Source of the DNA: Bacteroidales bacterium
GTDB lineage: Bacteria > Bacteroidota > Bacteroidia > Bacteroidales > JACABE01
DNA: 64,000 bases
Direction of reading: 5' to 3'
Assembly (NCBI GenBank): GCA_038204725.1
Contig: JBBRCQ010000010.1
Span: forward strand, 9,072-73,071
The notes beneath the pieces were generated by a model. That model was not told the DNA's origin, searched no databases, and saw only the letters and a list, made by a program, of their open reading frames with translations. A program made the translations under genes and the position numbers. Below, in pieces: positions 4,332-17,280 of this stretch (its first letter is position 1; each line of letters begins with the position of its first letter).

Positions 4332-4339
4332 TATCTTTG
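4332..4339 (+). promoter_or_regulatory. Bacteroidota-type -7 promoter box (TATCTTTG)
   Basis: Matches TAnnTTTG about 40 bp upstream of the ATG at 4381, after a 280-bp AT-rich gap. Confidence 0.5.
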
Positions 4340-4380: not shown

Positions 4381-5352
4381 ATGAGTACAGAAGAAGAAAT
4401 CCCAAAAAAGAAAACGAGGAGAGAGTTCCTGCAGGAAGCAGGACTTGTTGGTATTGGTGCAGTAGTGGCAGGATCAGCAATTTTTGCTGGTATACAATAC
4501 GATAGTAAAAAGACGAAGGGTGCCCGAATAAAAGTGCTCACAGCCGAAAATGAACTCCTCGAAATTGAAAAAAATGATACTACCAAAGTAATAAAATCCA
4601 AAAGCGAAAATCTCACAAAACTCCAAAGAGAAGGAAGAGAAGGAATTGCAGGTAAACGATGGGTAATGGTAATTGATCTTTCAAAATGCCAAAATGCACG
4701 AAAATGCATGGCTGCATGCCAAGGTGCACATCATCTCAGACCTGAACAATCCCATATGATGACACTGACAATGCAGGAATCAGTTCATATGCCTCCTTTT
4801 TATATGCCAAAACCTTGCCAGCATTGCGACAATCCTCCTTGCGTGGCTGTTTGTCCTGTAGATGCAACTTATAAACGTCCCGATGGAATTGTATTGATTG
4901 ATAACGAAAGATGTATAGGCTGCAGGTTTTGTATTGCAGCATGTCCATATAGTGCAAGAGTTTTAAATTGGTCAAAGCCTTTGCATGATGCCGAAGATAA
5001 AGATTTAACGTATAATGTAGAACTTAACATCCCTCAAAGGTTAGGGACTATCACCAAATGTTTGTTTAGTGCCGATAGATTAAGGGAAGGAAAATTACCC
5101 TATTGTGTGTCGGCCTGCCCCAATGGTGTTTTTTATTTTGGAGATGAAAATGAAGATGCTGTAACCAACGGAACTACTAAAGAAACAGTCAGATTTAAAA
5201 AACTACTGGAAGATAATGCCGGCTATCATTTAATGCCGGAGCTTGGGACACAACCAAGAGTGTATTACCTTCCGCCCAAAAACAGAACGATTCCATTTAA
5301 AGAAAGCGACAAACCAGATGCAAATGAGCATAATGAAAATAACAAAGTTTAA
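4381..5352 (+). CDS. Tat-exported iron-sulfur subunit (NrfC/PsrB/ActB-FeS-domain family)
   Basis: 323 aa. Twin-arginine motif TRREFLQEAG precedes a hydrophobic stretch. Four ferredoxin-type Cys groups: CQNARKCMAAC, CQHCDNPPCVAVCP, CIGCRFCIAACP and CLFS...CVSACP. Two of the groups each lack one Cys. Confidence 0.85.
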   Translation: MSTEEEIPKKKTRREFLQEAGLVGIGAVVAGSAIFAGIQYDSKKTKGARIKVLTAENELLEIEKNDTTKVIKSKSENLTKLQREGREGIAGKRWVMVIDLSKCQNARKCMAACQGAHHLRPEQSHMMTLTMQESVHMPPFYMPKPCQHCDNPPCVAVCPVDATYKRPDGIVLIDNERCIGCRFCIAACPYSARVLNWSKPLHDAEDKDLTYNVELNIPQRLGTITKCLFSADRLREGKLPYCVSACPNGVFYFGDENEDAVTNGTTKETVRFKKLLEDNAGYHLMPELGTQPRVYYLPPKNRTIPFKESDKPDANEHNENNKV

Positions 5353-5366
5353 CTGAACATTATTTT

Positions 5367-6674
5367 ATGATACAACCATTAAATACAGACAAAATTACTT
5401 CAGATTTGCTTAGACCCATCAGGTTGAATATAGGCTTTAAAATCTGGATGGGTTTTTTAGGAATTTCGTTGATTGTTTGTCTCTATGCCTATACCATACA
5501 ACTTAAAAACGGCTTAGGTGTTGCTGGCATAAGGGATTATGTTTCGTGGGGGATGTATCTTGCCAATTTTGTATTTTTTGTTGCAACCAGTTTAATAGGA
5601 ATGTTAATAAGTTCAGTGCTGGGACTTTTAGGCGCAAAATGGGCTGCACCACTGGCAAGAATTGCCGAAATTATTGCCCTTGCTTTTGCTGCTGTTGCAG
5701 GATTGGTCATCGTTTCGGATATGGGACGCCCCGAAAGGCTTTTATATGTTTTTTTCTATGGGCGAATTCAATCACCCATCGTTTGGGATGTTACGGTTGT
5801 ATCGGTATATGTATTAATTAGTGCATTATTTCTGTATTTACCATTAATTCCGGATCTGAAAATCTGTTACGAAAAATTGGATAAAATCCCGAAATTACAA
5901 AGAAATATTTATAAGACTTTATCAATCAACTGGAATGGTTCATTGGAACAAGTAAAAATCATCAAACAATCTACAAGAATATTAGCTATTTTAATTATAC
6001 CGGTTGCTTTAGCTATACATACTGTTACTTCATGGTTGTTTGCAAATACATCAAGAGCAGGCTGGGATTCCACTATTTTTGGTCCCTATTTCGTCATAGG
6101 TGCTTTTGTTGCAGGCTGTGCTGCTGTGATTATAGCCATGTATTTTTACAGACAAAATTTCAAATTACAGGATTACATCACTGATTTTCATTTCGACAAA
6201 ATGGGAAAACTTTTAGTATTGGTATCCCTGGTATACCTCTACTTTAATTTGAACGAATACATGGTACCCGGTTATAAAATGAAAAAATTCGAAGCCATCC
6301 ATCTTCATGAATTATTTGTCGGAAGACATGCATTTTTATTTTGGGGAGTCCAATTATTCGGTCTTGTTTTACCCATCCTCTTTTTACTTTTCAGAAAAAT
6401 GAGGAAACCATTTCCGATGCTCGTTATTGCTCTATTTGTAATTGTGGGTGCCTGGTTCAAAAGATATATCATCGTGATCCCAACACAAGAACATCCGTAT
6501 TTACCCATTCAAAATGTTCCGCTAAATTTCAAAATATACACGCCTACACTCATAGAAACACTTATTACCATTGCACCATTTATTCTAGTTCTTATCATTA
6601 TTACTATATTATCGAAACTGATTCCTGTAATACCAATACAGGAAACCATTGAACAAACCGAAGAAACTAAATAA
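5367..6674 (+). CDS. NrfD/PsrC-like integral membrane quinone-interacting subunit (long, about 10-TM type)
   Basis: 435 aa, polytopic. Follows the FeS gene after 14 bp, the canonical NrfC-NrfD pairing. Its size matches the ActC/DsrP-length members rather than 8-TM NrfD. Confidence 0.8.
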   Translation: MIQPLNTDKITSDLLRPIRLNIGFKIWMGFLGISLIVCLYAYTIQLKNGLGVAGIRDYVSWGMYLANFVFFVATSLIGMLISSVLGLLGAKWAAPLARIAEIIALAFAAVAGLVIVSDMGRPERLLYVFFYGRIQSPIVWDVTVVSVYVLISALFLYLPLIPDLKICYEKLDKIPKLQRNIYKTLSINWNGSLEQVKIIKQSTRILAILIIPVALAIHTVTSWLFANTSRAGWDSTIFGPYFVIGAFVAGCAAVIIAMYFYRQNFKLQDYITDFHFDKMGKLLVLVSLVYLYFNLNEYMVPGYKMKKFEAIHLHELFVGRHAFLFWGVQLFGLVLPILFLLFRKMRKPFPMLVIALFVIVGAWFKRYIIVIPTQEHPYLPIQNVPLNFKIYTPTLIETLITIAPFILVLIIITILSKLIPVIPIQETIEQTEETK

Positions 6675-6683
6675 TGAATAAAT

Positions 6684-7589
6684 ATGTTTAGAAAAAATAT
6701 TTACAAGAAGTTTTATTTATCTATTTTAATTACTTTTTTCTTTTTTGGACAGTTGTATGCTCAAAAATGGGATGTTACTGCTGATAAAAAAGCTAAAAAA
6801 AGTTTCATTAAATTTGACAAAAATACAGCAAAAGAAGGCGAAACAATTTATACCAAAAACTGCAAGACTTGTCATGGTAATCCAGGAAAAGGTGACTTTC
6901 TTATAACTTTAAAACCACATCCTGTTGATCTGGCAAGTTCAACTACACAGAAATATACAGATGGAGATTTGTTCTATATCATTTCCACTGGTAGACAAAT
7001 AATGCCATCCTTTAAAAATGTTTTATCTGAAGATGAAAGATGGAAAGTAATTTCTTTTATAAGGAGCTTTAACAAAACCTATATCCAGGTTCTTTCGTTG
7101 ACTGACCCAAACAAAAGCAAACTGGTAAATATTACAATGGATTTTGATTCTATTTCCAACAAGGTGAATGTGATGATCAAAGCCAATGAAAAAACAGGAG
7201 TTGTAAATTTAAAGGATGCTGAAGTGCTGTTATTTGTAAACAGATATTTTGGGAAAATGCAAATTGATAAAACCATTCGTACCAATAATGAAGGAAAAGT
7301 TACCTTTAGTTTTCCCAAAGACTTACCAGGAGATAAAACTGGAATGGTGGATTTAACAATAAAAGTAAATGACGATAATTACGGGGAAATAGAGTCTCAA
7401 AATAAATTAAAAATAGGAATACCTACAGATAAACCCGGTTTAAATGAAAAACGGGCAATATGGAATGTTGTTAACAAAGCACCTTTTTGGATCATCATAA
7501 CATTTACATCCATTCTTTTAGTGGTAATGTTTTTTTTAGGTTACATCTTATATAGTTTATTTAAAATAAGAAAAATTGGAGCTGTTTAA
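6684..7589 (+). CDS. Monohaem class-I cytochrome c with an extra beta-rich domain and a C-terminal TM anchor
   Basis: 301 aa. Signal peptide, one CKTCH, and a Met ligand context QIMPSF. C-terminal helix FWIIITFTSILLVVMFFLGYILYSLF. Confidence 0.8.
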   Translation: MFRKNIYKKFYLSILITFFFFGQLYAQKWDVTADKKAKKSFIKFDKNTAKEGETIYTKNCKTCHGNPGKGDFLITLKPHPVDLASSTTQKYTDGDLFYIISTGRQIMPSFKNVLSEDERWKVISFIRSFNKTYIQVLSLTDPNKSKLVNITMDFDSISNKVNVMIKANEKTGVVNLKDAEVLLFVNRYFGKMQIDKTIRTNNEGKVTFSFPKDLPGDKTGMVDLTIKVNDDNYGEIESQNKLKIGIPTDKPGLNEKRAIWNVVNKAPFWIIITFTSILLVVMFFLGYILYSLFKIRKIGAV

Positions 7590-7633: not shown

Positions 7634-8017
7634 ATGAAAAATCTCGCTATTTTTGGTAGAATATTGTTTGCTATACCCTTTGGTATTATTGGGTTAAACC
7701 ATTTTTTGATGACCAATTTTTTTCTGGGTCAAATGTCTTCATTTATTCCCGGAGGAGCTTATACTGTTTTATTGACAGGCGCTTTATTAATATTGGCAAG
7801 TATTAGTATTCTCATTAATAAATTTATAAAAATTACATGTTTTAGCTTAGCAGGATTATTGCTTATTTTTATCATAACAATTCATATTCCTGGTTTATTT
7901 ACTGTAAACGCTGAATTTGCATTAATTGAACTGCTCAAAGATACCGGATTAATGGGAGGAGCCATTATGCTTGCAGTTTATTCAGATTTTTCAAAATATA
8001 AATCCATTAAAGAATAA
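7634..8017 (+). CDS. DoxX-family membrane protein
   Basis: 127 aa, 4 TM. The LNHF... pattern is typical of DoxX-like proteins. Confidence 0.6.
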   Translation: MKNLAIFGRILFAIPFGIIGLNHFLMTNFFLGQMSSFIPGGAYTVLLTGALLILASISILINKFIKITCFSLAGLLLIFIITIHIPGLFTVNAEFALIELLKDTGLMGGAIMLAVYSDFSKYKSIKE

Positions 8018-8021
8018 TGCT

Positions 8022-8792
8022 ATGAAAAAGAAACTCATTTTAATTTTTATTGCTTTTATCATTTTTATTCCATTTTCTAAAGCTCAGGTAGATCAATCTG
8101 ATGATGTTGGCATAATTGAACATCTCGGCAAATACATCCCTTTAGATTTGCAATTTGTCAACGATAAATCTGAAGCAGTAACCTTAAGACAACTCATCAA
8201 CAAACCTACCATTTTATCATTTGTCTATTTTGACTGCCCCGGTTTGTGTAGTCCATTATTAGAAGGAGTTGGAGATGTTATACAAAAAACAGACCTGGTA
8301 TTAGGTAAGGATTATCAAGTGATAACGATTAGTTTTAATTTCAGAGATACTCCTGAAAAAGCCAAAGCTAAAAAGGAAAAGTTTATTGACCGCTATTCTA
8401 AAGGGAAAGGCGATGGCTGGATATTTCTTACTACTGACAGTCTGACGATTTTTAAAATTACTGATGCTACTGGTTTTAAAACAAAAGCAGTAGGTCTTGA
8501 TTTCGTACATCCTTCTGCAATTATTGCCATAAGTCCACAAGGTATGATTACAAGATATCTTTATGGAATCACTTTCCTCCCCATTGACTTTAAAATGTCA
8601 ATTTATGAAGCCAACAAAGAGCAACCCAGACCAACTATTCAAAAAATATTATTGATGTGTTATAGTTACGATATCGATAATAAACGATTTGCTTTGGATA
8701 TTACAAAAGTTTCAGGGATAATAATCGTTTTTTTCCTCCTTGTATTTATAGTAGGATTTCTAATTAAAAGCAAAAAGAAAAAACAAATATAA
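8022..8792 (+). CDS. SCO1/SenC copper chaperone for cytochrome oxidase
   Basis: Thioredoxin-like CxxxC copper site FDCPGLCSP, a downstream His (DFVHPS), and a C-terminal TM. Start moved from 7971 to Met 8022 (MKKKLILIF signal-like), which removes the overlap with DoxX. Confidence 0.85.
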   Translation: MKKKLILIFIAFIIFIPFSKAQVDQSDDVGIIEHLGKYIPLDLQFVNDKSEAVTLRQLINKPTILSFVYFDCPGLCSPLLEGVGDVIQKTDLVLGKDYQVITISFNFRDTPEKAKAKKEKFIDRYSKGKGDGWIFLTTDSLTIFKITDATGFKTKAVGLDFVHPSAIIAISPQGMITRYLYGITFLPIDFKMSIYEANKEQPRPTIQKILLMCYSYDIDNKRFALDITKVSGIIIVFFLLVFIVGFLIKSKKKKQI

Positions 8793-8799
8793 AGCAACC

Positions 8800-10410
8800 A
8801 TGAGTAACGAAACTACTAAAACAGAATATGTAAGTTATCTGGATCATCAGGGAAAGTATAAAGGATTGTTTTCCTGGATTTTTTCTACAGATCATAAAAG
8901 AATAGCGTTGCTTTATATGTATGCAATTTCAACGTTTTTCTTTGTGGGTGCTACTTTGGGTTTATTAATGCGATTAGAACTGATTGCACCCGGCGAAACG
9001 ATTATGAAACCACAAACCTACAATGGAATTTTTACGGTACATGGAATCATTATGATTTTCATGGTTGTTATTCCCGGATTATCAGCAATATTTGGAAATT
9101 TCTTTTTACCTATTCATATTGGTGCTAAGGATGTGGCTTTCCCAAAATTAAATTTATTTTCATGGTGGGTCTTTATAACAGGTAGTGTATTGGCAATTGC
9201 TTCTCAGTTTTTAAAAAGCGGACCTCCCGATACAGGATGGACCTTTTACGCCCCTTATAGCACGACTACAGGCACCAGTGTGATCATGGCTACTACAGCT
9301 GCATTTGTGCTTGGCTTCTCTTCTATCCTCACCGGACTGAACTTTATTGTTACAATTCATCAAATGCGTGCTCCGGGTATGAAATTCTTTAGTATGCCTT
9401 TATTTCCATGGTCAATTTATGCAACAGCTTGGATTCAATTACTTGCAACACCTATTATCGGGATAACGCTTTTAATGCTCATCGCAGAAAGACTTTTCGG
9501 AATTGGTTTTTTTAATCCTGAATTAGGTGGTGATCCGATACTGTTTCAACATTTGTTCTGGATTTATTCACATCCAGCAGTTTATATTATGATTCTTCCG
9601 GCAATGGGAGTTATCACAGAAATAATCCCTACTTTTTGTCAGAAAAGAATTTATGGTTACAAAGCCATTGCTTATTCAAGTATAGCCATTGCTGCCGTTG
9701 GCTTCCTGGTTTGGGGGCATCACATGTTTACTTCAGGTATGAGCGAAACAGCCAGATGGTTCTTTTCATTACTTACTTTTATTGTAGCTGTTCCAAGTGC
9801 GATTAAAGTTTTCAACTGGATTTCTACCATGTACAAAGGGTCTATTGACTTAAAGCCACCTTTTTTGTATTCCCTTTCGTTCATCTTCCTTTTTATAATA
9901 GGCGGCTTAACCGGTTTATTACAAGGTGCTGTTGCAATAAACATTCAGATACACGATACTTCATTTATTGTTGCACATTTTCATTACATTATTTTTGGAG
10001 GAATGGGTTTTGCATTTTTTGCAGCCCTTCATTATTGGTTACCTAAAATGTATGGCAGAATGTATAATTTCAAAATTGCCAATATTGCCTGGGGAATCAT
10101 TTTTATCGGTTTTAACTTTTTATATTTCCCTCAATTTATTCTTGGAATGCAAGGTATGCCAAGAAGATATTTCGATTATTTACCTATGTTTCAAACAGGT
10201 CAAATAATATCTACACTTGGTGGTATAACTTTAATATCAGGATTAATACTCATGGTATATAATTTAATATCCGGAATGAAAACAGGAGCAATTGCAACAG
10301 CAAACCCTTGGAATGGATCTACCTTGGAATGGCAGATCCCTTCACCCCCACCGCTGGAGAATTTTGATGTACCACCTGTTGTAAAAGAAAATCCTTACGA
10401 TTATAATTAG
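8800..10410 (+). CDS. ctaD: Cytochrome c oxidase subunit I, A2-type
   Basis: 536 aa with 12 or more TM and GHHMFTSGM. The helix VI motif FWIYSHPAVY carries the Tyr-Ser substitution for the HPEVY glutamate that defines A2-type haem-copper oxidases. Confidence 0.95.
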   Translation: MSNETTKTEYVSYLDHQGKYKGLFSWIFSTDHKRIALLYMYAISTFFFVGATLGLLMRLELIAPGETIMKPQTYNGIFTVHGIIMIFMVVIPGLSAIFGNFFLPIHIGAKDVAFPKLNLFSWWVFITGSVLAIASQFLKSGPPDTGWTFYAPYSTTTGTSVIMATTAAFVLGFSSILTGLNFIVTIHQMRAPGMKFFSMPLFPWSIYATAWIQLLATPIIGITLLMLIAERLFGIGFFNPELGGDPILFQHLFWIYSHPAVYIMILPAMGVITEIIPTFCQKRIYGYKAIAYSSIAIAAVGFLVWGHHMFTSGMSETARWFFSLLTFIVAVPSAIKVFNWISTMYKGSIDLKPPFLYSLSFIFLFIIGGLTGLLQGAVAINIQIHDTSFIVAHFHYIIFGGMGFAFFAALHYWLPKMYGRMYNFKIANIAWGIIFIGFNFLYFPQFILGMQGMPRRYFDYLPMFQTGQIISTLGGITLISGLILMVYNLISGMKTGAIATANPWNGSTLEWQIPSPPPLENFDVPPVVKENPYDYN

Positions 10411-10423
10411 AAAAACAAATGCT

Positions 10424-11041
10424 ATGAATGATCAACTGAAACACACTGAAGTACACAGAGATGACGAAGCATCCAAATTAGGCATGTGGCTCTTCATTTT
10501 TACAGAACTCCTTTTATTCGGAGGTTTATTCCTGGTTTATTCAATTTATAGAGCACAATATCATGAAAATTTTCATGAAGGGAGTTTAGAATTAAGTGTC
10601 ACAATAGGTGCAATCAACACAATTGTGCTTTTATTCAGTAGTATGACCATTGCAATGGCTTTAACTGCTATGCAAAAAAACAATAAAAAATTGGCTCTGA
10701 TAATGATTGCGGTTACATTGCTGATGGCTTTCATCTTTTTAGTGAATAAATATTTTGAATGGGGTGCAAAGTTTCATCATGGATTATACCCCGGATCTGA
10801 TTTAATGTCTCACTTAGAAAGAGGTCATCTTTTATATTTCAGCCTGTATTTTTTTATGACCGGATTGCACGCATTACATATTATTGTTGGGATGACACTT
10901 CTATTAATTGTATTTTTTAAAGTGAAAAATGGAAACATTCATTATCAAAAATATGTATTTCTGGAAAATGGAGCGCTTTACTGGCATCTTGTAGATTTAA
11001 TCTGGATTTTCTTATTCCCGTTAATGTATTTAATTTCATGA
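10424..11041 (+). CDS. ctaE: Cytochrome c oxidase subunit III (short form)
   Basis: 205 aa, polytopic, with a WHLVDLIWIFLFP motif. Confidence 0.85.
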   Translation: MNDQLKHTEVHRDDEASKLGMWLFIFTELLLFGGLFLVYSIYRAQYHENFHEGSLELSVTIGAINTIVLLFSSMTIAMALTAMQKNNKKLALIMIAVTLLMAFIFLVNKYFEWGAKFHHGLYPGSDLMSHLERGHLLYFSLYFFMTGLHALHIIVGMTLLLIVFFKVKNGNIHYQKYVFLENGALYWHLVDLIWIFLFPLMYLIS

Positions 11042-11056
11042 TAAAATTATATTAAA

Positions 11057-11341
11057 ATGGCTAATCACAGTTCACATACAACAGCATATAAAGTATTGGG
11101 AAGGGTTTTAATTACTTTAATGACGCTTACTTTCCTAACCATTTATATTACCTCTATTCATCTGGCTGCATTAACTGTTATGGTAGCATTATTAATTGCA
11201 GGCATTAAAGGATTTTTGGTTATGTATTATTTTATGCATTTAAAATATGAAACTTTATTGTTGCGTATTCTTGTGAGCATGACCATTGTTCTATTCATCG
11301 TTATTGTTTTAGTAACATTTATTGATTATTCATACAGATAA
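11057..11341 (+). CDS. Cytochrome c oxidase subunit IV-like small membrane protein
   Basis: 94 aa, 3 TM. Position follows subunit III, as in ctaF/CoxIV genes. Confidence 0.65.
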   Translation: MANHSSHTTAYKVLGRVLITLMTLTFLTIYITSIHLAALTVMVALLIAGIKGFLVMYYFMHLKYETLLLRILVSMTIVLFIVIVLVTFIDYSYR

Positions 11342-11351
11342 ATAAAAAAAT

Positions 11352-12272
11352 ATGTTTTCTAACGCTTCGAATTTTGTTCAGAATGTAGATTATGCATTTC
11401 TGATAATTTTAGGAATCTCATTTTTCTTTTTAATTTTATTAACTGCAATAATGGTTGTTTTTGTAGTAAAATATAATAAGAAAAAACACAGCAAAGCTGT
11501 TCAGATAAAAGACAATCCACTTTTAGAAATTACATGGACTATAGTACCATTGATTCTTGCACTTTATATGTTTTATATCGGCTGGGAAGGATTTCTTCCG
11601 ATGCGAAAAGCACCTAAAGATGCGATGGAAGTGAATGTAATCGGAAGAATGTGGAAATGGACGTTTGAGTACCCAGGCAATAAACTATCTGATACACTAA
11701 TATTACCAATACATAAATCGGTCAAACTCAACCTTATTTCAAAAGATGTTATCCATGGTTTCTTTATTCCTTCTTTTAGAATTAAAGAAGACGTTGTACC
11801 CGGGAAAAAAAATTATACATGGTTTATTCCCGGCGAATTGGGTGATTACAATCTGTTTTGTTCTTCCTATTGTGGGGTTAGCCATTCCTATATGTCAGCT
11901 ATTGTCAGGATTGTTCCCGATGTAAATTACTCAAAGTGGATAGCTGCTTTACCCGCTAAGCCATCAGAAAATCATGAAGGATATAAAATTATGGAAAATA
12001 ACGGATGTTTTTCATGTCATACAGTGGATGGAACTAAAAATGTAGGTCCTAGTTTCAGGGGATTATTCGGATCAACTATCGAAGTAATTACAAATGGGAA
12101 CCCAAGAAAAATCACAGTAGATGCAGAATACATTAAGTCTTCAGTTTATGAACCGGATAAAGATGTTGTGGTTGATTATCAAAAAGGACTCATGAAATCC
12201 TATCAAGGACTTATTAAAGAGAAAGAAATAAACGGAATAACAGAATATTTAAAAACATTAAACAAAAAATAA
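11352..12272 (+). CDS. ctaC: Cytochrome c oxidase subunit II with fused C-terminal cytochrome c (caa3 type)
   Basis: Two N-terminal TM helices. CuA site VIHGF...CSSYCGVSHSYM. C-terminal CFSCH haem c domain. Confidence 0.9.
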   Translation: MFSNASNFVQNVDYAFLIILGISFFFLILLTAIMVVFVVKYNKKKHSKAVQIKDNPLLEITWTIVPLILALYMFYIGWEGFLPMRKAPKDAMEVNVIGRMWKWTFEYPGNKLSDTLILPIHKSVKLNLISKDVIHGFFIPSFRIKEDVVPGKKNYTWFIPGELGDYNLFCSSYCGVSHSYMSAIVRIVPDVNYSKWIAALPAKPSENHEGYKIMENNGCFSCHTVDGTKNVGPSFRGLFGSTIEVITNGNPRKITVDAEYIKSSVYEPDKDVVVDYQKGLMKSYQGLIKEKEINGITEYLKTLNKK

Positions 12273-12306
12273 ACTGAAAAAGCTGCTGATAAATATTATA
12301 CCTGCC

Positions 12307-13143
12307 TTGATAAAATACAAGGTTTCATTGGCTGTAACATTTACAGCTATTACAGGTTATATCCTTTACAATGGAAATATTGATTTTCAGTTACTTTATT
12401 TAGCATTGGGCGTATTTATACTTGCAGGTGGAGTGAGTGCATTCAATGAATTTCAGGAACGTGAATATGATGCAAAAATGAACAGGACAATGCATCGCCC
12501 AATTCCTTCGGGGGAAATCTCGCCTCAACTTGCACTTTTTATTTCTTTACTTTTTATAGTAATTGGAATTGTAATATTGTTTGTTTTTTTCGGAACAATC
12601 ACAACATTATTAGGATTATTCAATGTAATATGGTATAATTTAATCTATACAAATCTCAAAAAAATCACACCGTTTGCAGTGGTTCCCGGTTCATTAACCG
12701 GAGCTGTACCCGTTTTAATAGGCTGGACTGCTGCAGGAGGGTATATCTTTGATTCAGCTATCATTTATATTGCATTGTTTGTTTTTGTGTGGCAAATACC
12801 GCATTTCTGGTTATTAATGCTTAAATACGGCGAGGAATATGAAGCAGCCGGTTTCCCCACTATCAATCAATCATTTAACCCCGAAAATCTGAAAATAATC
12901 ATATTTTCCTGGGTTATAGCAACTACTATTATTTCGATGATGCTGCCTTTGTTTATTGTGAATATATCATTGCCGTTTTTTGTAGCCGTTTTTGTTTTAA
13001 ATATACTGTTTGTTGGAATTTTTACATTGCTGACATTTGGGAAAGTCACTGAACTGAATCTTAAACGTTCTTTTATCGGTATCAATATCTACATGTTCAT
13101 TTTCATGGTGATGCTCACCATTTATCATCTTTTTGAATTATAA
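12307..13143 (+). CDS. ctaB: Protohaem IX farnesyltransferase (haem O synthase)
   Basis: 278 aa UbiA-type polytopic protein (NEFQEREYDAKMNRT..RP). There is no in-frame ATG/GTG upstream, so a TTG start at 12307 is assumed. Confidence 0.85.
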   Translation: MIKYKVSLAVTFTAITGYILYNGNIDFQLLYLALGVFILAGGVSAFNEFQEREYDAKMNRTMHRPIPSGEISPQLALFISLLFIVIGIVILFVFFGTITTLLGLFNVIWYNLIYTNLKKITPFAVVPGSLTGAVPVLIGWTAAGGYIFDSAIIYIALFVFVWQIPHFWLLMLKYGEEYEAAGFPTINQSFNPENLKIIIFSWVIATTIISMMLPLFIVNISLPFFVAVFVLNILFVGIFTLLTFGKVTELNLKRSFIGINIYMFIFMVMLTIYHLFEL

Positions 13144-14496: not shown

Positions 14497-17280
14497 TTAG
14501 TATTTTCCAGCAAGTAATGAATAGATTATCAGTATCACAAGTATAATCCCAGTAAACAAGGCTATAAATCCAAATATTTTTACAAATTTAAGCCATGATT
14601 TAGTGATTTCTGTTTTAACAATATATTTCTCCATATCACCTGCTTCTTCCATTTTTTCAAATTCTTTGGGACGGTCAATTTTATATTCTTCCAATTCAAC
14701 ATGACCGGTAAAAATAACAGTATCCATTGGAAATGCTTCAGGACGCAAATGAGTATTGAAGAAATGAATAGTGAATATAAAAACTACAGCTAATAGTGCT
14801 TCATCACTATGTATAATTTGAGCTACATTAATAATCCAGCCGGGAAATATTTTGGTAAATATTTCAGGAAACCATAAAATTAAACCGGAGAATCCAATCA
14901 CAGCAACACCCCAAAAAACAGCCATATAATCAAACTTTTCCCAATAAGTCCATCTACCATATTTAGGACGTTCGCCCAACCATAAAAACCATTTAATAGT
15001 CGCAATGAAATCTATAACATCTTGTTTGTTAAACATTAATGTATTCGATCCAAAAATGAAAGATCCGATTTTTTTATTTTGGGCTTTTTTGAGTTTTAAT
15101 AAAGATACGATATGGAAAATAAAGTATCCAAAAGTAATTAATGCTGCAAAACGATGGATATTGCCTGCAATTTCAACACCACCCATTAATCTTGCAAAGT
15201 TATTTGCCCAGCTCATGTGGGCAAACTTAAGCATCATACCCGTAAAGGCTAACAATAAGAAGCTGAGTATTACAAAAATGTGAGTGATCCGCTGGCTTTT
15301 TGTAAATCGTCGGATGTATATTGCTTCTCCTTGTGGTAATGGATGACGTTTCTTTTTTCTGGCTTCAACAATGGAACGGGGAATCCATAAAAGTGTATGT
15401 ATTCCGAAAAATCCAAAAACACCAAAAAGCAATGAAGTCATACCCCAAAATGTATAATAAAGTATATTATTATCATTGTGGGTAGCATGAGATAAAAATC
15501 CTGTAAATTTCAGATTTGCATTGGCATGACATTTTTTACAGGTTTTTACAATGTATTTTTCTCCTACACTGGATTCGGGATTATTAATGTTCAGAATATT
15601 ATGTGCACCATGACAATCAGAACATCTAGCCGTTTTTAACTGACCCAGTGTATATGCTTTCCCATGATAGGTTTCCATATAGGAAGATGAAAGTTTTTCG
15701 TGACACGAGCCACATTGAATTGTAATCTGAGTTAAAAATTGATCTTTGTCGATTTCTGTAATCGTATGTGCTGTATGACAATTAGCACAAGTTGGATATT
15801 TTTTATCTTTTGTATTTTTTAAAATTGAATGATCACTGCTGATATATTCATTATAAATACTTTTATGACATTTTCCACAGGTTTTTGGGATTTGAAGCGG
15901 GTTTACCGTTGAATTAGGATCAGATTCCTTTAAAACATTATGTGAGGTGTGACAATCGGTACAAATCGCACTAGCTAGCAATCCTTTATTCATTAAACCT
16001 TTCCCATGAACACTCTTGGAATAATCACTAAAAGCATCTATTTCTTTTAAATTTGTATTGATAACAGCTTTTCCGTTTTTATTATGACACTTTCCACAAA
16101 GTTTCGGACTGTTTGCTCTGTTTGTTTCTGAATTCTCATCATATCTGCTTAATATAATATGTGTTCCATGACAATCGGTACAATAGGGTGCATTCGATTT
16201 TTTACCATAAAATGCCTGTCCATGTCCACTATTTATGTAAATATTCGAAACTGCTTCATGACATATAGAACAATCTACTTTACCTACTGTTTTACAGGGT
16301 CGAACATGGCTATTATCTTTAGTTACGTCAGCATGGCATTTATCACAGGCAATATTTTTATGAGGTGTATTCATAAAATCTTCATGATTGATTTTTAAGG
16401 ATACTTTTTTATTATTTACAATTTTAAAAGTATTATCAGACTCATGACATTTTGTACATACCTGATTGGATATGGAAATTTCTTCTTTTTGACGTTTTAT
16501 TTTATGTGATGAATGGCAATCGTTGCAACTGGGTATACTTCCCGCTTTCTTTTCCCATAATTCACTCTTTATAACCTTTTTATGAACCATTTCAATGTTA
16601 GTATGACATTTCATGCAGGTAGATGCAATTTTTTTACTAGAAGTAGTAGCCTGAGGATTGATATGGGGAAGTATCAAATGGTTCCCATGACAATCATTAC
16701 AAGTTGCTGAAACTATCAGTCCACTTTCTAACAATCCTTTTCCATGTATACTCTCACTGTAATTGGTGAGAATATTTTGCGTAGTTATGTTATATAATCG
16801 AGCAACCGGAGCGCCTTCTTTATGACATTTACCACACAAAACAGGAATGTTCATTTTATAAGTAACTGATTTTACATTGGTATGTGAAAGGACATCATGT
16901 TTTCCATGACATTCCTTACAATCAGGAGCATAAGGAGCATTAAATTTTAATGCCTGCCCATGAATACTAATACCAAATTGATATTCAGCATTTTTATGAC
17001 AACTGCCACAACTTACTTCCTTGAGATTTTCGGGATGAGGAAAATCTGTTACATTCGCATCTTTATGGCAAGATATACATTTTACATTTTTATGTATAGA
17101 ATTCCCAATTATACTTTTATTGACAAACAATGAAACGGTTTTGCCATTGGATACTTTTGTCAGGGTTTTATCACTATGGCAACCATAACAGTCATCATTC
17201 GTCTGTGAATATAAATTACCTGTAAAAAAAAGAAAACTCGTAATTACTAGTAATAGGATTGCCTTGATAACATTTAACAT
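14497..17280 (-). CDS. Multihaem cytochrome c (19 CxxCH) fused to a dihaem cytochrome b-like membrane domain (CbcL-like architecture)
   Basis: 927 aa. Signal peptide, then 19 CxxCH motifs (7 are CxxCHxxH) in residues about 30-590. About six TM helices follow, with the FdnI/HydC-type His pattern (RFTKSQRITH, GNIHRF...FIFH, IIHSD...TIHFFNTH). Confidence 0.85.
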   Translation of the reverse strand: MLNVIKAILLLVITSFLFFTGNLYSQTNDDCYGCHSDKTLTKVSNGKTVSLFVNKSIIGNSIHKNVKCISCHKDANVTDFPHPENLKEVSCGSCHKNAEYQFGISIHGQALKFNAPYAPDCKECHGKHDVLSHTNVKSVTYKMNIPVLCGKCHKEGAPVARLYNITTQNILTNYSESIHGKGLLESGLIVSATCNDCHGNHLILPHINPQATTSSKKIASTCMKCHTNIEMVHKKVIKSELWEKKAGSIPSCNDCHSSHKIKRQKEEISISNQVCTKCHESDNTFKIVNNKKVSLKINHEDFMNTPHKNIACDKCHADVTKDNSHVRPCKTVGKVDCSICHEAVSNIYINSGHGQAFYGKKSNAPYCTDCHGTHIILSRYDENSETNRANSPKLCGKCHNKNGKAVINTNLKEIDAFSDYSKSVHGKGLMNKGLLASAICTDCHTSHNVLKESDPNSTVNPLQIPKTCGKCHKSIYNEYISSDHSILKNTKDKKYPTCANCHTAHTITEIDKDQFLTQITIQCGSCHEKLSSSYMETYHGKAYTLGQLKTARCSDCHGAHNILNINNPESSVGEKYIVKTCKKCHANANLKFTGFLSHATHNDNNILYYTFWGMTSLLFGVFGFFGIHTLLWIPRSIVEARKKKRHPLPQGEAIYIRRFTKSQRITHIFVILSFLLLAFTGMMLKFAHMSWANNFARLMGGVEIAGNIHRFAALITFGYFIFHIVSLLKLKKAQNKKIGSFIFGSNTLMFNKQDVIDFIATIKWFLWLGERPKYGRWTYWEKFDYMAVFWGVAVIGFSGLILWFPEIFTKIFPGWIINVAQIIHSDEALLAVVFIFTIHFFNTHLRPEAFPMDTVIFTGHVELEEYKIDRPKEFEKMEEAGDMEKYIVKTEITKSWLKFVKIFGFIALFTGIILVILIIYSLLAGKY

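Follow-up and report, generated by a model that had tools for sequence, protein, structure and literature searches.

We describe here three adjacent genes from an uncultured Bacteroidales bacterium, referred to as the trio, that encode an iron-sulfur (FeS) protein, an NrfD-like membrane protein and a membrane-anchored monohaem cytochrome c, and that form a candidate menaquinol:cytochrome c oxidoreductase at the head of a caa3 oxidase operon. They lie in a stretch of 64,000 nucleotides (nt) of contig C10 (JBBRCQ010000010.1, positions 9072-73071), which we call the window, from a genome of 4.1 Mb that is 97.5% complete and has a GC content of about 33%. All three open reading frames (ORFs) are intact and on the + strand, at positions 4381-5352 (323 amino acids, aa), 5367-6674 (435 aa) and 6684-7589 (301 aa), with gaps of 14 nt and 9 nt between them, and in this they agree with an original prediction made from the sequence, which saw the trio as a stripped-down alternative complex III (ACIII). 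Aerobic respiration via cytochrome c oxidases needs an enzyme that passes electrons from quinol to cytochrome c, and to our knowledge only the bc1/b6f complexes and ACIII are established as such. Neither is present in many Bacteroidales that encode caa3 or cbb3 oxidases, among them facultative anaerobes from sediments that have been cultured.

The three subunits

The FeS protein (4381-5352) carries the twin-arginine translocation (Tat) motif K-K-T-R-R-E-F-L, of which RR-x-F is invariant among 66-68 orthologues of 57-82% identity, and has the Cys arrangement of PsrB, NrfC and DmsB that marks it as a four-cluster ferredoxin subunit of the complex iron-sulfur molybdoenzyme type. It scores 81.8 bits with Pfam Fer4_11 and 183.5 bits with NCBIfam DsrO (cut-off 200), and its best sequence match in the PDB is PsrB (2vpw_B, 1.5e-30), aligned across all four Cys groups. 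In contrast to the kinship with ACIII first proposed, this subunit scores best with DsrO and PsrB and not with ActB. There are 14 Cys residues, at 103, 109 and 113 (group I), 146, 149, 154 and 158 (group II), 178, 181, 184 and 188 (group III) and 227, 242 and 246 (group IV), with four in each of groups II and III and three in each of groups I and IV. Residue-by-residue comparison with PsrB gives a spacing of C-x2-A-x2-C-x3-C in group I and C-x2-S...C-x3-C in group IV, with Ala106 replacing the second Cys of group I and Ser230 that of group IV, just as had been read from the sequence. Ala106, Ser230 and all 14 Cys are invariant among the orthologues, and the substitutions are therefore not sequencing noise. 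Within the clade the loss looks stepwise, relatives of the type at locus L088 having the group I Ala only and deeper relatives all 16 Cys.

A missing second Cys is the classical signature of a [3Fe-4S] cluster, as in NarH, ActB and the 7Fe ferredoxins, and the clusters of groups I and IV belong to the half of the ferredoxin that is away from the membrane and that faces the catalytic subunit in molybdoenzymes. Because the second Cys is missing in both groups, two distal [3Fe-4S] clusters with raised potential are predicted, which may bridge towards the haem, and the invariant double loss makes a direct spectroscopic prediction of two [3Fe-4S] signals. The pattern is distinct from that of ActB, whose B2 domains read CCCC/CCCC/CTCC/CCCC against CACC/CCCC/CCCC/CSCC in the window protein. 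The three-Cys group III of ActB (C-x2-T-x2-C) matches the [3Fe-4S] cluster FeS1 next to the quinol site (PMC5928083), whereas the three-Cys sites of the trio, in groups I and IV, are at the distal end of the cluster wire.

The membrane subunit (5367-6674) is a member of the NrfD/PsrC family of cofactor-free polytopic proteins with two four-helix bundles, scoring 129.2 bits with Pfam NrfD (PF03916) against a gathering cut-off of 25.8, and its AlphaFold2 model (predicted template modelling score, pTM, 0.88) has 10 transmembrane (TM) helices in the architecture of ActC, the size class originally assigned to it. In comparison with the ACIII structures from Rhodothermus marinus (6F0K), Flavobacterium johnsoniae (6BTM), Roseiflexus (6LOD) and Chloroflexus (8K9E), the ActC chains of all four are the only strong phmmer matches among solved structures (1e-47 to 1e-43 over about 400 residues, at 26-29% identity); ActF matches at 9e-6 at best, and phmmer gives no hit to the PsrC structure. 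Foldseek TM-scores are 0.88-0.89 with ActC, 0.58-0.63 with ActF and 0.39 with PsrC. Among NCBIfam models the best score is with DsrP, at 107.8 bits under a cut-off of 350, with genuine Chlorobia DsrP scoring 420-493 bits on the same model; QrcD scores 52.7 bits.

A word-index protein search yielded only relatives of at least 77% identity, and an exhaustive search of representatives was used for family placement. A maximum-likelihood tree (134 sequences, LG+G4, quick search) was built from these representatives together with seven ActC and seven ActF from canonical Bacteroidota ACIII loci, four DsrP and the second NrfD of the genome itself. In this tree, whose sample favours relatives of the query and includes no named members of the PsrC, NrfD and QrcD branches, a clade of 57 rows with a Shimodaira-Hasegawa-like approximate likelihood ratio test (SH-aLRT) support of 99 brings together the window protein and every oxidase-linked sequence from Bacteroidales, and separate supported clades hold DsrP (SH-aLRT 99) and the seven canonical ActC (SH-aLRT 94). 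The trio clade is a sister clade to those of ActC and DsrP and the three-Cys sites differ in position, so that descent from ACIII by simple loss of parts, the strict sense of 'stripped-down', is rejected. Nor does the subunit fall in a clade with a catalytic partner; the genome has three molybdopterin ORFs, all on other contigs and none near the trio. A comparison with NosGH, which had also been envisaged, is presumably inapplicable since we take NosH to be NapH-type and not NrfD-type. The membrane subunit thus appears to belong to the ActC/DsrP branch of the NrfD family, which is group C of Calisto and Pereira 2021 (PMC8076601), but to be neither ActC nor DsrP.

The quinol-site and channel residues described for R. 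marinus ActC (PMC5928083) were mapped onto the window protein. W82, F89, L166 and D169 of the ActC quinol pocket correspond to the invariant residues W61, F68, I138 and D141. Asp118 is likewise invariant, and its position is that of the strictly conserved Asp107 of DsrP (preprint 10.64898/2026.08.25.746951). Ten proposed half-channel residues of ActC are kept (R98, E101, S82, Y148, S152, D163, H218, Y241, E297 and R366), and because so many are conserved, proton translocation by the NrfD subunit is possible.

The cytochrome subunit (6684-7589) consists of a signal peptide (residues 1-26), a class I His/Met domain (about 27-135), an immunoglobulin (Ig)-like beta-sandwich (about 148-243) and a TM helix (268-300). 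Its one CKTCH, at residue 60, and a distal Met are the N-terminal haem motif and axial ligand expected of a class I cytochrome c, and C60, C63, H64, M107 and P108 are invariant in 36 sequences. The protein scores 50 bits with Pfam Cytochrome_CBB3, and the best fold match of its cytochrome domain in the PDB is ActE (6lod_E). The AlphaFold2 model (mean predicted local distance difference test, pLDDT, 87.5) contains the signal helix, the class I domain, a beta-sandwich of eight strands and the C-terminal helix, which accounts for the extra domain and the membrane anchor that had been noticed originally. The part made up of the Ig-like domain and the TM helix shares homology (E down to 3.5e-15) with extensions at the C-terminus of NrfD relatives.

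A search of the genome for the established enzymes found neither a Rieske protein nor cytochrome b, and no ActD, ActE or ActF. There was no tblastn match with ActA queries from two Bacteroidota ACIII loci, nor any with ActD/ActF queries, and PF11821 (ActD) has 0 matches in this genome compared with matches in 287 of 401 Bacteroidota genomes. ActB queries match only through residues of about 730-1065 (the B2 part), on two FeS genes, the molybdopterin-like B1 domain being absent, and the trio operon contains no multihaem gene. The caa3 enzyme of this operon is the only cytochrome c oxidase of the genome, which also encodes a bd quinol oxidase (CydAB, C80:10662-13396).

Synteny, fusions and co-occurrence with oxidases

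Scanning one genome per species with a seven-sequence alignment identified at least 596 stretches that encode relatives; the locus counts given here refer to the best 80, which are all from Bacteroidia, are 58-83% identical and include the cultured carriers Marinifilum flexuosum, Ancylomarina euxinus, Geofilum rubicundum and Saccharicrinis sp. The order FeS-NrfD-cytochrome-(4TM)-SCO-CoxI-III-IV-II-CtaB, with the trio first, is present in 58 of these 80 loci. In at least eight others (L060, L064, L067, L069, L075, L078, L082 and L085) the trio adjoins or sits inside cbb3 operons, as in the FixS-CcoNO-FixQ-FixP-FixG-FixH neighbourhood of L085.

Two loci contain natural fusions of the NrfD-like subunit to the cytochrome, one of 756 aa (L039, 8971-11241) with its haem motif at 509 and one of 760 aa (L044, 8971-11253) with its haem motif at 513, the hosts being one metagenome-assembled genome (MAG) and one closed chromosome of 5.4 Mb. 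The former signal peptide has become an extra helix in these proteins, which fits a 10-TM NrfD-like subunit with a cytoplasmic C-terminus. In relatives at 35-46% identity it is the Ig-like domain and helix that are fused to NrfD, with a small free cytochrome c adjoining, and the two kinds of fusion together point to one complex. Fusion of NrfD to the FeS protein is known as well, in P0138. The C-terminal extensions of the longer NrfD relatives were also considered as fused cytochromes; this was rejected, as none contains CxxCH and they are Ig-like domain plus TM helix.

Cytochromes c and cupredoxins are common periplasmic carriers of high potential. Deep members of the clade (L116, 5113-8959; L117, 1237-4190) stand directly after one or two cupredoxin genes in place of a cytochrome c, which suggests that the acceptors in these lineages are blue copper proteins.

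Co-occurrence was determined in 151 evenly drawn Bacteroidales genomes, 28 of which have an orthologue at 52% identity or more. An A- or C-type haem-copper oxidase is encoded by 25 of these 28 and by 26 of the 123 genomes without an orthologue (Fisher p 1.8e-11). The strength of this association bears on whether the trio could instead be a general menaquinol dehydrogenase that feeds the periplasmic cytochrome pool and, through it, other acceptors such as a multihaem/DUF5777 outer-membrane system or nitrogen-oxide reductases, its link to oxidases reflecting no more than shared regulation. The window has a multihaem cluster of its own at 14.5-22 kb, the relative at L088 is in tandem with a DUF5777 barrel gene, and in 9 of the 80 loci the DNA examined holds the trio but no oxidase, all of which such a role would accommodate. 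However, the trio is inside the oxidase operon ahead of SCO1 in the 58 loci and inside cbb3 operons elsewhere, and its cytochrome is tethered rather than free, and even fused to NrfD in some cases; together with the co-occurrence this makes a general dehydrogenase unlikely.

Proposed electron path and comparison with known complexes

Taken together, we think it likely that the trio forms one complex in which menaquinol is oxidised and electrons pass through its own anchored cytochrome c to caa3, or to cbb3 in relatives, and that would fill the role of bc1 or ACIII in a genome without both. Synteny, fusions and oxidase co-occurrence thereby lend support to the minimal quinol:cytochrome c oxidoreductase of the original prediction as a proposed function. 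It is also left standing by the lack of further act genes in the genome, by the clade position of the NrfD subunit and by the fixed Cys losses. Quinol would be oxidised in a pocket of the NrfD subunit lined by W61, F68, I138, D118 and D141, with protons released to the periplasm and electrons entering the membrane-proximal [4Fe-4S] cluster of the Tat-exported FeS subunit (Cys groups II/III). The cluster wire would continue to the two distal three-Cys sites (groups IV and I), predicted to be [3Fe-4S] clusters of higher potential, and from there to the His/Met haem of a cytochrome that is presumably held on the NrfD subunit via its Ig-like domain and C-terminal helix; the haem would then reduce the cytochrome c domain of CoxII. 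Docking of the haem might be at the wire's distal end or, in the manner of ActA haem I, close to the proximal cluster. There is precedent for such a path in DsrMKJOP, in which quinol is oxidised at DsrP and electrons go via DsrO to the DsrJ haem c (10.64898/2026.08.25.746951).

The same parts could in principle run backwards as a cytochrome c:menaquinone oxidoreductase resembling QrcABCD, with periplasmic or extracellular donors reducing quinone at the expense of the proton motive force. QrcCD, which is the same kind of FeS and NrfD dimer, does reduce menaquinone (PMC6303296, PMC13059093), and the conserved channel residues could provide coupling to the proton motive force. The trio shares its operons with terminal oxidases and not with donor genes, however, and its membrane subunit is nearer to ActC and DsrP, which are proposed quinol oxidisers, than to QrcD (107.8 bits with DsrP vs 52.7). 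ACIII-like complexes have reportedly been proposed for reverse electron flow in iron oxidisers, but the Bacteroidales hosts seem to be organotrophs with no obvious need to drive electrons uphill, and we regard the reverse direction as improbable.

The direction favoured here, from menaquinol to cytochrome c or caa3, is also the job proposed for ACIII, and the two systems share several parts: a 10-TM, cofactor-free quinol subunit with the ActC fold, an FeS module with four clusters that is exported by Tat, a monohaem His/Met cytochrome tethered to the membrane, and a position directly upstream of SCO and caa3 genes. They differ in that the trio has three subunits and ACIII six or seven, with pentahaem (or hexahaem) ActA, ActD, ActF and the molybdopterin-like B1 domain all missing from the trio. 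The FeS protein is 323 aa long, whereas ActB, in which B1 is fused to B2, has about 1000 aa; the NrfD subunit is outside the ActC clade; and the cytochrome is anchored by a C-terminal helix with an Ig-like domain, where that of ACIII is anchored by lipid.

Another explanation is that the trio is what remains of a full ACIII in decay and no longer works. Its position relative to the SCO and caa3 genes is indeed that of actABCDEF in other Bacteroidota, and two cluster sites have each lost one Cys. However, none of the three ORFs is broken and all are kept in hundreds of species, the 14 Cys, the haem motif and many NrfD residues are invariant, the lost Cys are fixed rather than variable, and the NrfD subunit is not of the ActC clade; a non-working remnant is therefore highly improbable. 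On present comparisons the working complex proposed here would be best read as analogous to ACIII and not as a reduced form of it.

DsrJOP offers a second parallel, as it too joins a quinol subunit of NrfD type to a four-cluster FeS protein in the periplasm and to a c-type cytochrome, a three-part logic shared by the DsrOhPh-tetrahaem systems (10.64898/2026.08.25.746951; PMC13047784; PMC11976967); the DsrOhPh-tetrahaem loci of cable bacteria and some Proteobacteria have been termed a 'candidate alternative complex III' (PMC13047784, PMC11976967). The membrane subunit resembles DsrP further in having Asp at the position of DsrP Asp107, where ActC has His. The trio nevertheless scores under the NCBIfam cut-offs for both DsrO (183.5/200) and DsrP (107.8/350) and forms a separate clade; DsrO has all 16 Cys and the trio FeS protein 14; the Dsr-type cytochromes are tri- or tetrahaem and that of the trio is a monohaem His/Met protein with an Ig-like domain; and the trio is tied to O2 reductases rather than to sulfur metabolism.

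Similarly, the trio has the Pfam NrfD and Fer4_11 combination of E. coli NrfABCD, Desulfovibrio QrcABCD and Thermus PsrBC, and NrfCD and QrcCD are quinone-reactive dimers that serve periplasmic cytochromes. PsrC, with 8 TM helices, gives no sequence hit and a TM-score of 0.39 to the 10-TM subunit of the trio; unlike Nrf and Qrc, the trio has no catalytic or multihaem partner, its partner being a monohaem cytochrome of high-potential type encoded beside oxidases. Dimers of FeS and NrfD proteins that serve periplasmic cytochromes are thus of a known kind (Nrf, Qrc, DsrJOP), and what distinguishes the trio is its Ig-anchored monohaem subunit, the double three-Cys pattern and its membership of caa3 and cbb3 operons.

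Several observations weigh against a dedicated menaquinol:cytochrome c oxidoreductase. Two residues of the ActC quinol site are not kept, H139 corresponding to D118 and D253 to L224. The window itself encodes, at 14497-17280 on the minus strand, a cytochrome with 19 haems that is fused to a cytochrome b quinone module and through which electrons could also pass from quinol to periplasmic cytochromes. Three of the 28 orthologue-bearing genomes show no oxidase, all three being fragmented MAGs of 440-990 contigs. Nor is the trio universal or exclusive in the order: about 26 of the Bacteroidales genomes sampled encode an oxidase but no trio orthologue, and Marinifilum flexuosum carries ActD and a Rieske/cytochrome b pair in addition to the trio. 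Neither ActD nor cytochrome b is present in Geofilum rubicundum JCM 15548, in Saccharicrinis sp. FJH62 or in the genome with locus L044. Finally, orphan NrfD paralogues of 61-67% identity lie beside nar operons without FeS or cytochrome neighbours, and the NrfD subunit can therefore be used in other contexts.

With these points included, we give about even chances to the broader proposal that the trio represents a third and evolutionarily separate class of quinol:cytochrome c oxidoreductase beside bc1/b6f and ACIII, with three subunits, a single NrfD quinol/proton module and distal [3Fe-4S] sites, reserved for the haem-copper oxidases of hundreds of Bacteroidales species, and with a wider clade that uses free cytochromes c or cupredoxins elsewhere. 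If so, it would be the smallest known analogue of complex III, a simple setting in which to ask if one NrfD-type subunit on its own can pump protons, and an evident use for the elusive [4Fe-4S] wire of ACIII-type FeS subunits. Annotation pipelines name the trio 'polysulfide reductase NrfD', 'HybB-like' or 'molybdopterin oxidoreductase membrane subunit', and metabolic reconstructions therefore miss the link or miscount the trio as ACIII. The 2021 survey of the NrfD family does not list it (PMC8076601), and a literature search that did not cover subscription journals found no description of the Bacteroidales trio, so that a prior description is possible.

Operon layout and other loci

The trio opens a run of ten + strand genes with intergenic distances of -47 to 44 nt, in the order FeS, NrfD-like, cytochrome c, 4-TM protein, SCO1, CoxI, CoxIII, CoxIV, CoxII and CtaB; a scan for terminators within the run gave no site above chance. 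Ahead of it is an AT-rich spacer of 281 nt, itself preceded by a haem-synthesis operon (hemN, hemH, hemY). The spacer contains a putative -7 promoter element read directly as TATCTTTG at 4332-4339 (+ strand), on the assumption that TAnnTTTG is the Bacteroidota consensus. No FNR-type box was found upstream of the operon, and a sigma-70 promoter scan gave matches at chance level only.

The fourth gene (7634-8017, + strand) encodes a 127-aa protein with 4 TM helices, which is present in 37 of the 58 caa3-linked loci and has no assigned role. It was originally called DoxX, a label that we reject (Pfam DoxX E = 2.2, 9.4 bits), and a hidden Markov model of its orthologues matches none of the small ORFs located ahead of SCO at canonical ACIII loci. 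The SCO1/SenC copper chaperone (7971-8792, + strand; Pfam SCO1-SenC 29 bits) has a listed TTG start at 7971 that overlaps the 4-TM gene by 47 nt; translation more probably begins at the ATG at 8022, with a typical signal or anchor sequence (MKKKLILIF...), and the overlap would then vanish. The caa3 oxidase and haem O synthase genes follow on the + strand at 8800-13143 with gaps of 7-34 nt: CoxI (8800-10410), CoxIII (10424-11041), CoxIV (11057-11341), CoxII with its C-terminal cytochrome c domain (11352-12272) and, as last gene of the operon, the haem O synthase CtaB (12307-13143). Elsewhere in the genome, two further COX1-family ORFs (C2:38035-39369 and C13:27561-28895; about 750-775 aa, about 195-213 bits) resemble quinol-dependent nitric oxide reductases in size and score.

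The genome has only two NrfD genes, and the second belongs to an FeS/NrfD pair on contig C84 (L003, 4911-8511, minus strand), with a Tat FeS protein of 289 aa and 16 Cys and an NrfD-like protein of 423 aa that forms a very long branch in the NrfD tree. The pair has genes for GcvH-like proteins (glycine-cleavage H-type) on both flanks and adjoins a sigma-54-type response regulator and a sensor kinase with a periplasmic CLECH haem motif.

Marinifilum flexuosum (G546) has three candidate quinol:cytochrome c systems (C1:751398-751889, C3:35752-37330 and L060), namely an ActD-bearing ACIII, a Rieske and cytochrome b pair and the cbb3-side trio. Orphan NrfD paralogues are found at L034 (5450-6772), L035 (8986-10290) and L051 (8986-10299), and also at L045 and L057; three of the orphans directly follow narGHJI and two narK genes, and MAG CAYHCQ01 carries both an orphan NrfD and a complete caa3-linked trio.

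Relatives of 34-42% identity form tandem modules of FeS, NrfD and a 280-aa Ig/TM protein (L088, 6812-15380; G462:C20:200508-211132). At L088 two copies of the module flank the DUF5777 outer-membrane barrel gene, and in G462 there are three NrfD copies within 11 kb; DUF5777 is present too in the multihaem cluster of the window. A small ORF of 79-124 aa accompanies the FeS gene in distant relatives, upstream of it at L087 (1-318), L088 (6812-7051) and L115 (5580-5954) and between FeS and NrfD at L084 (7617-7970). By description it recalls the single-helix 'TMH1' gene that adjoins the DsrOhPh-tetrahaem loci of cable bacteria (PMC13047784).

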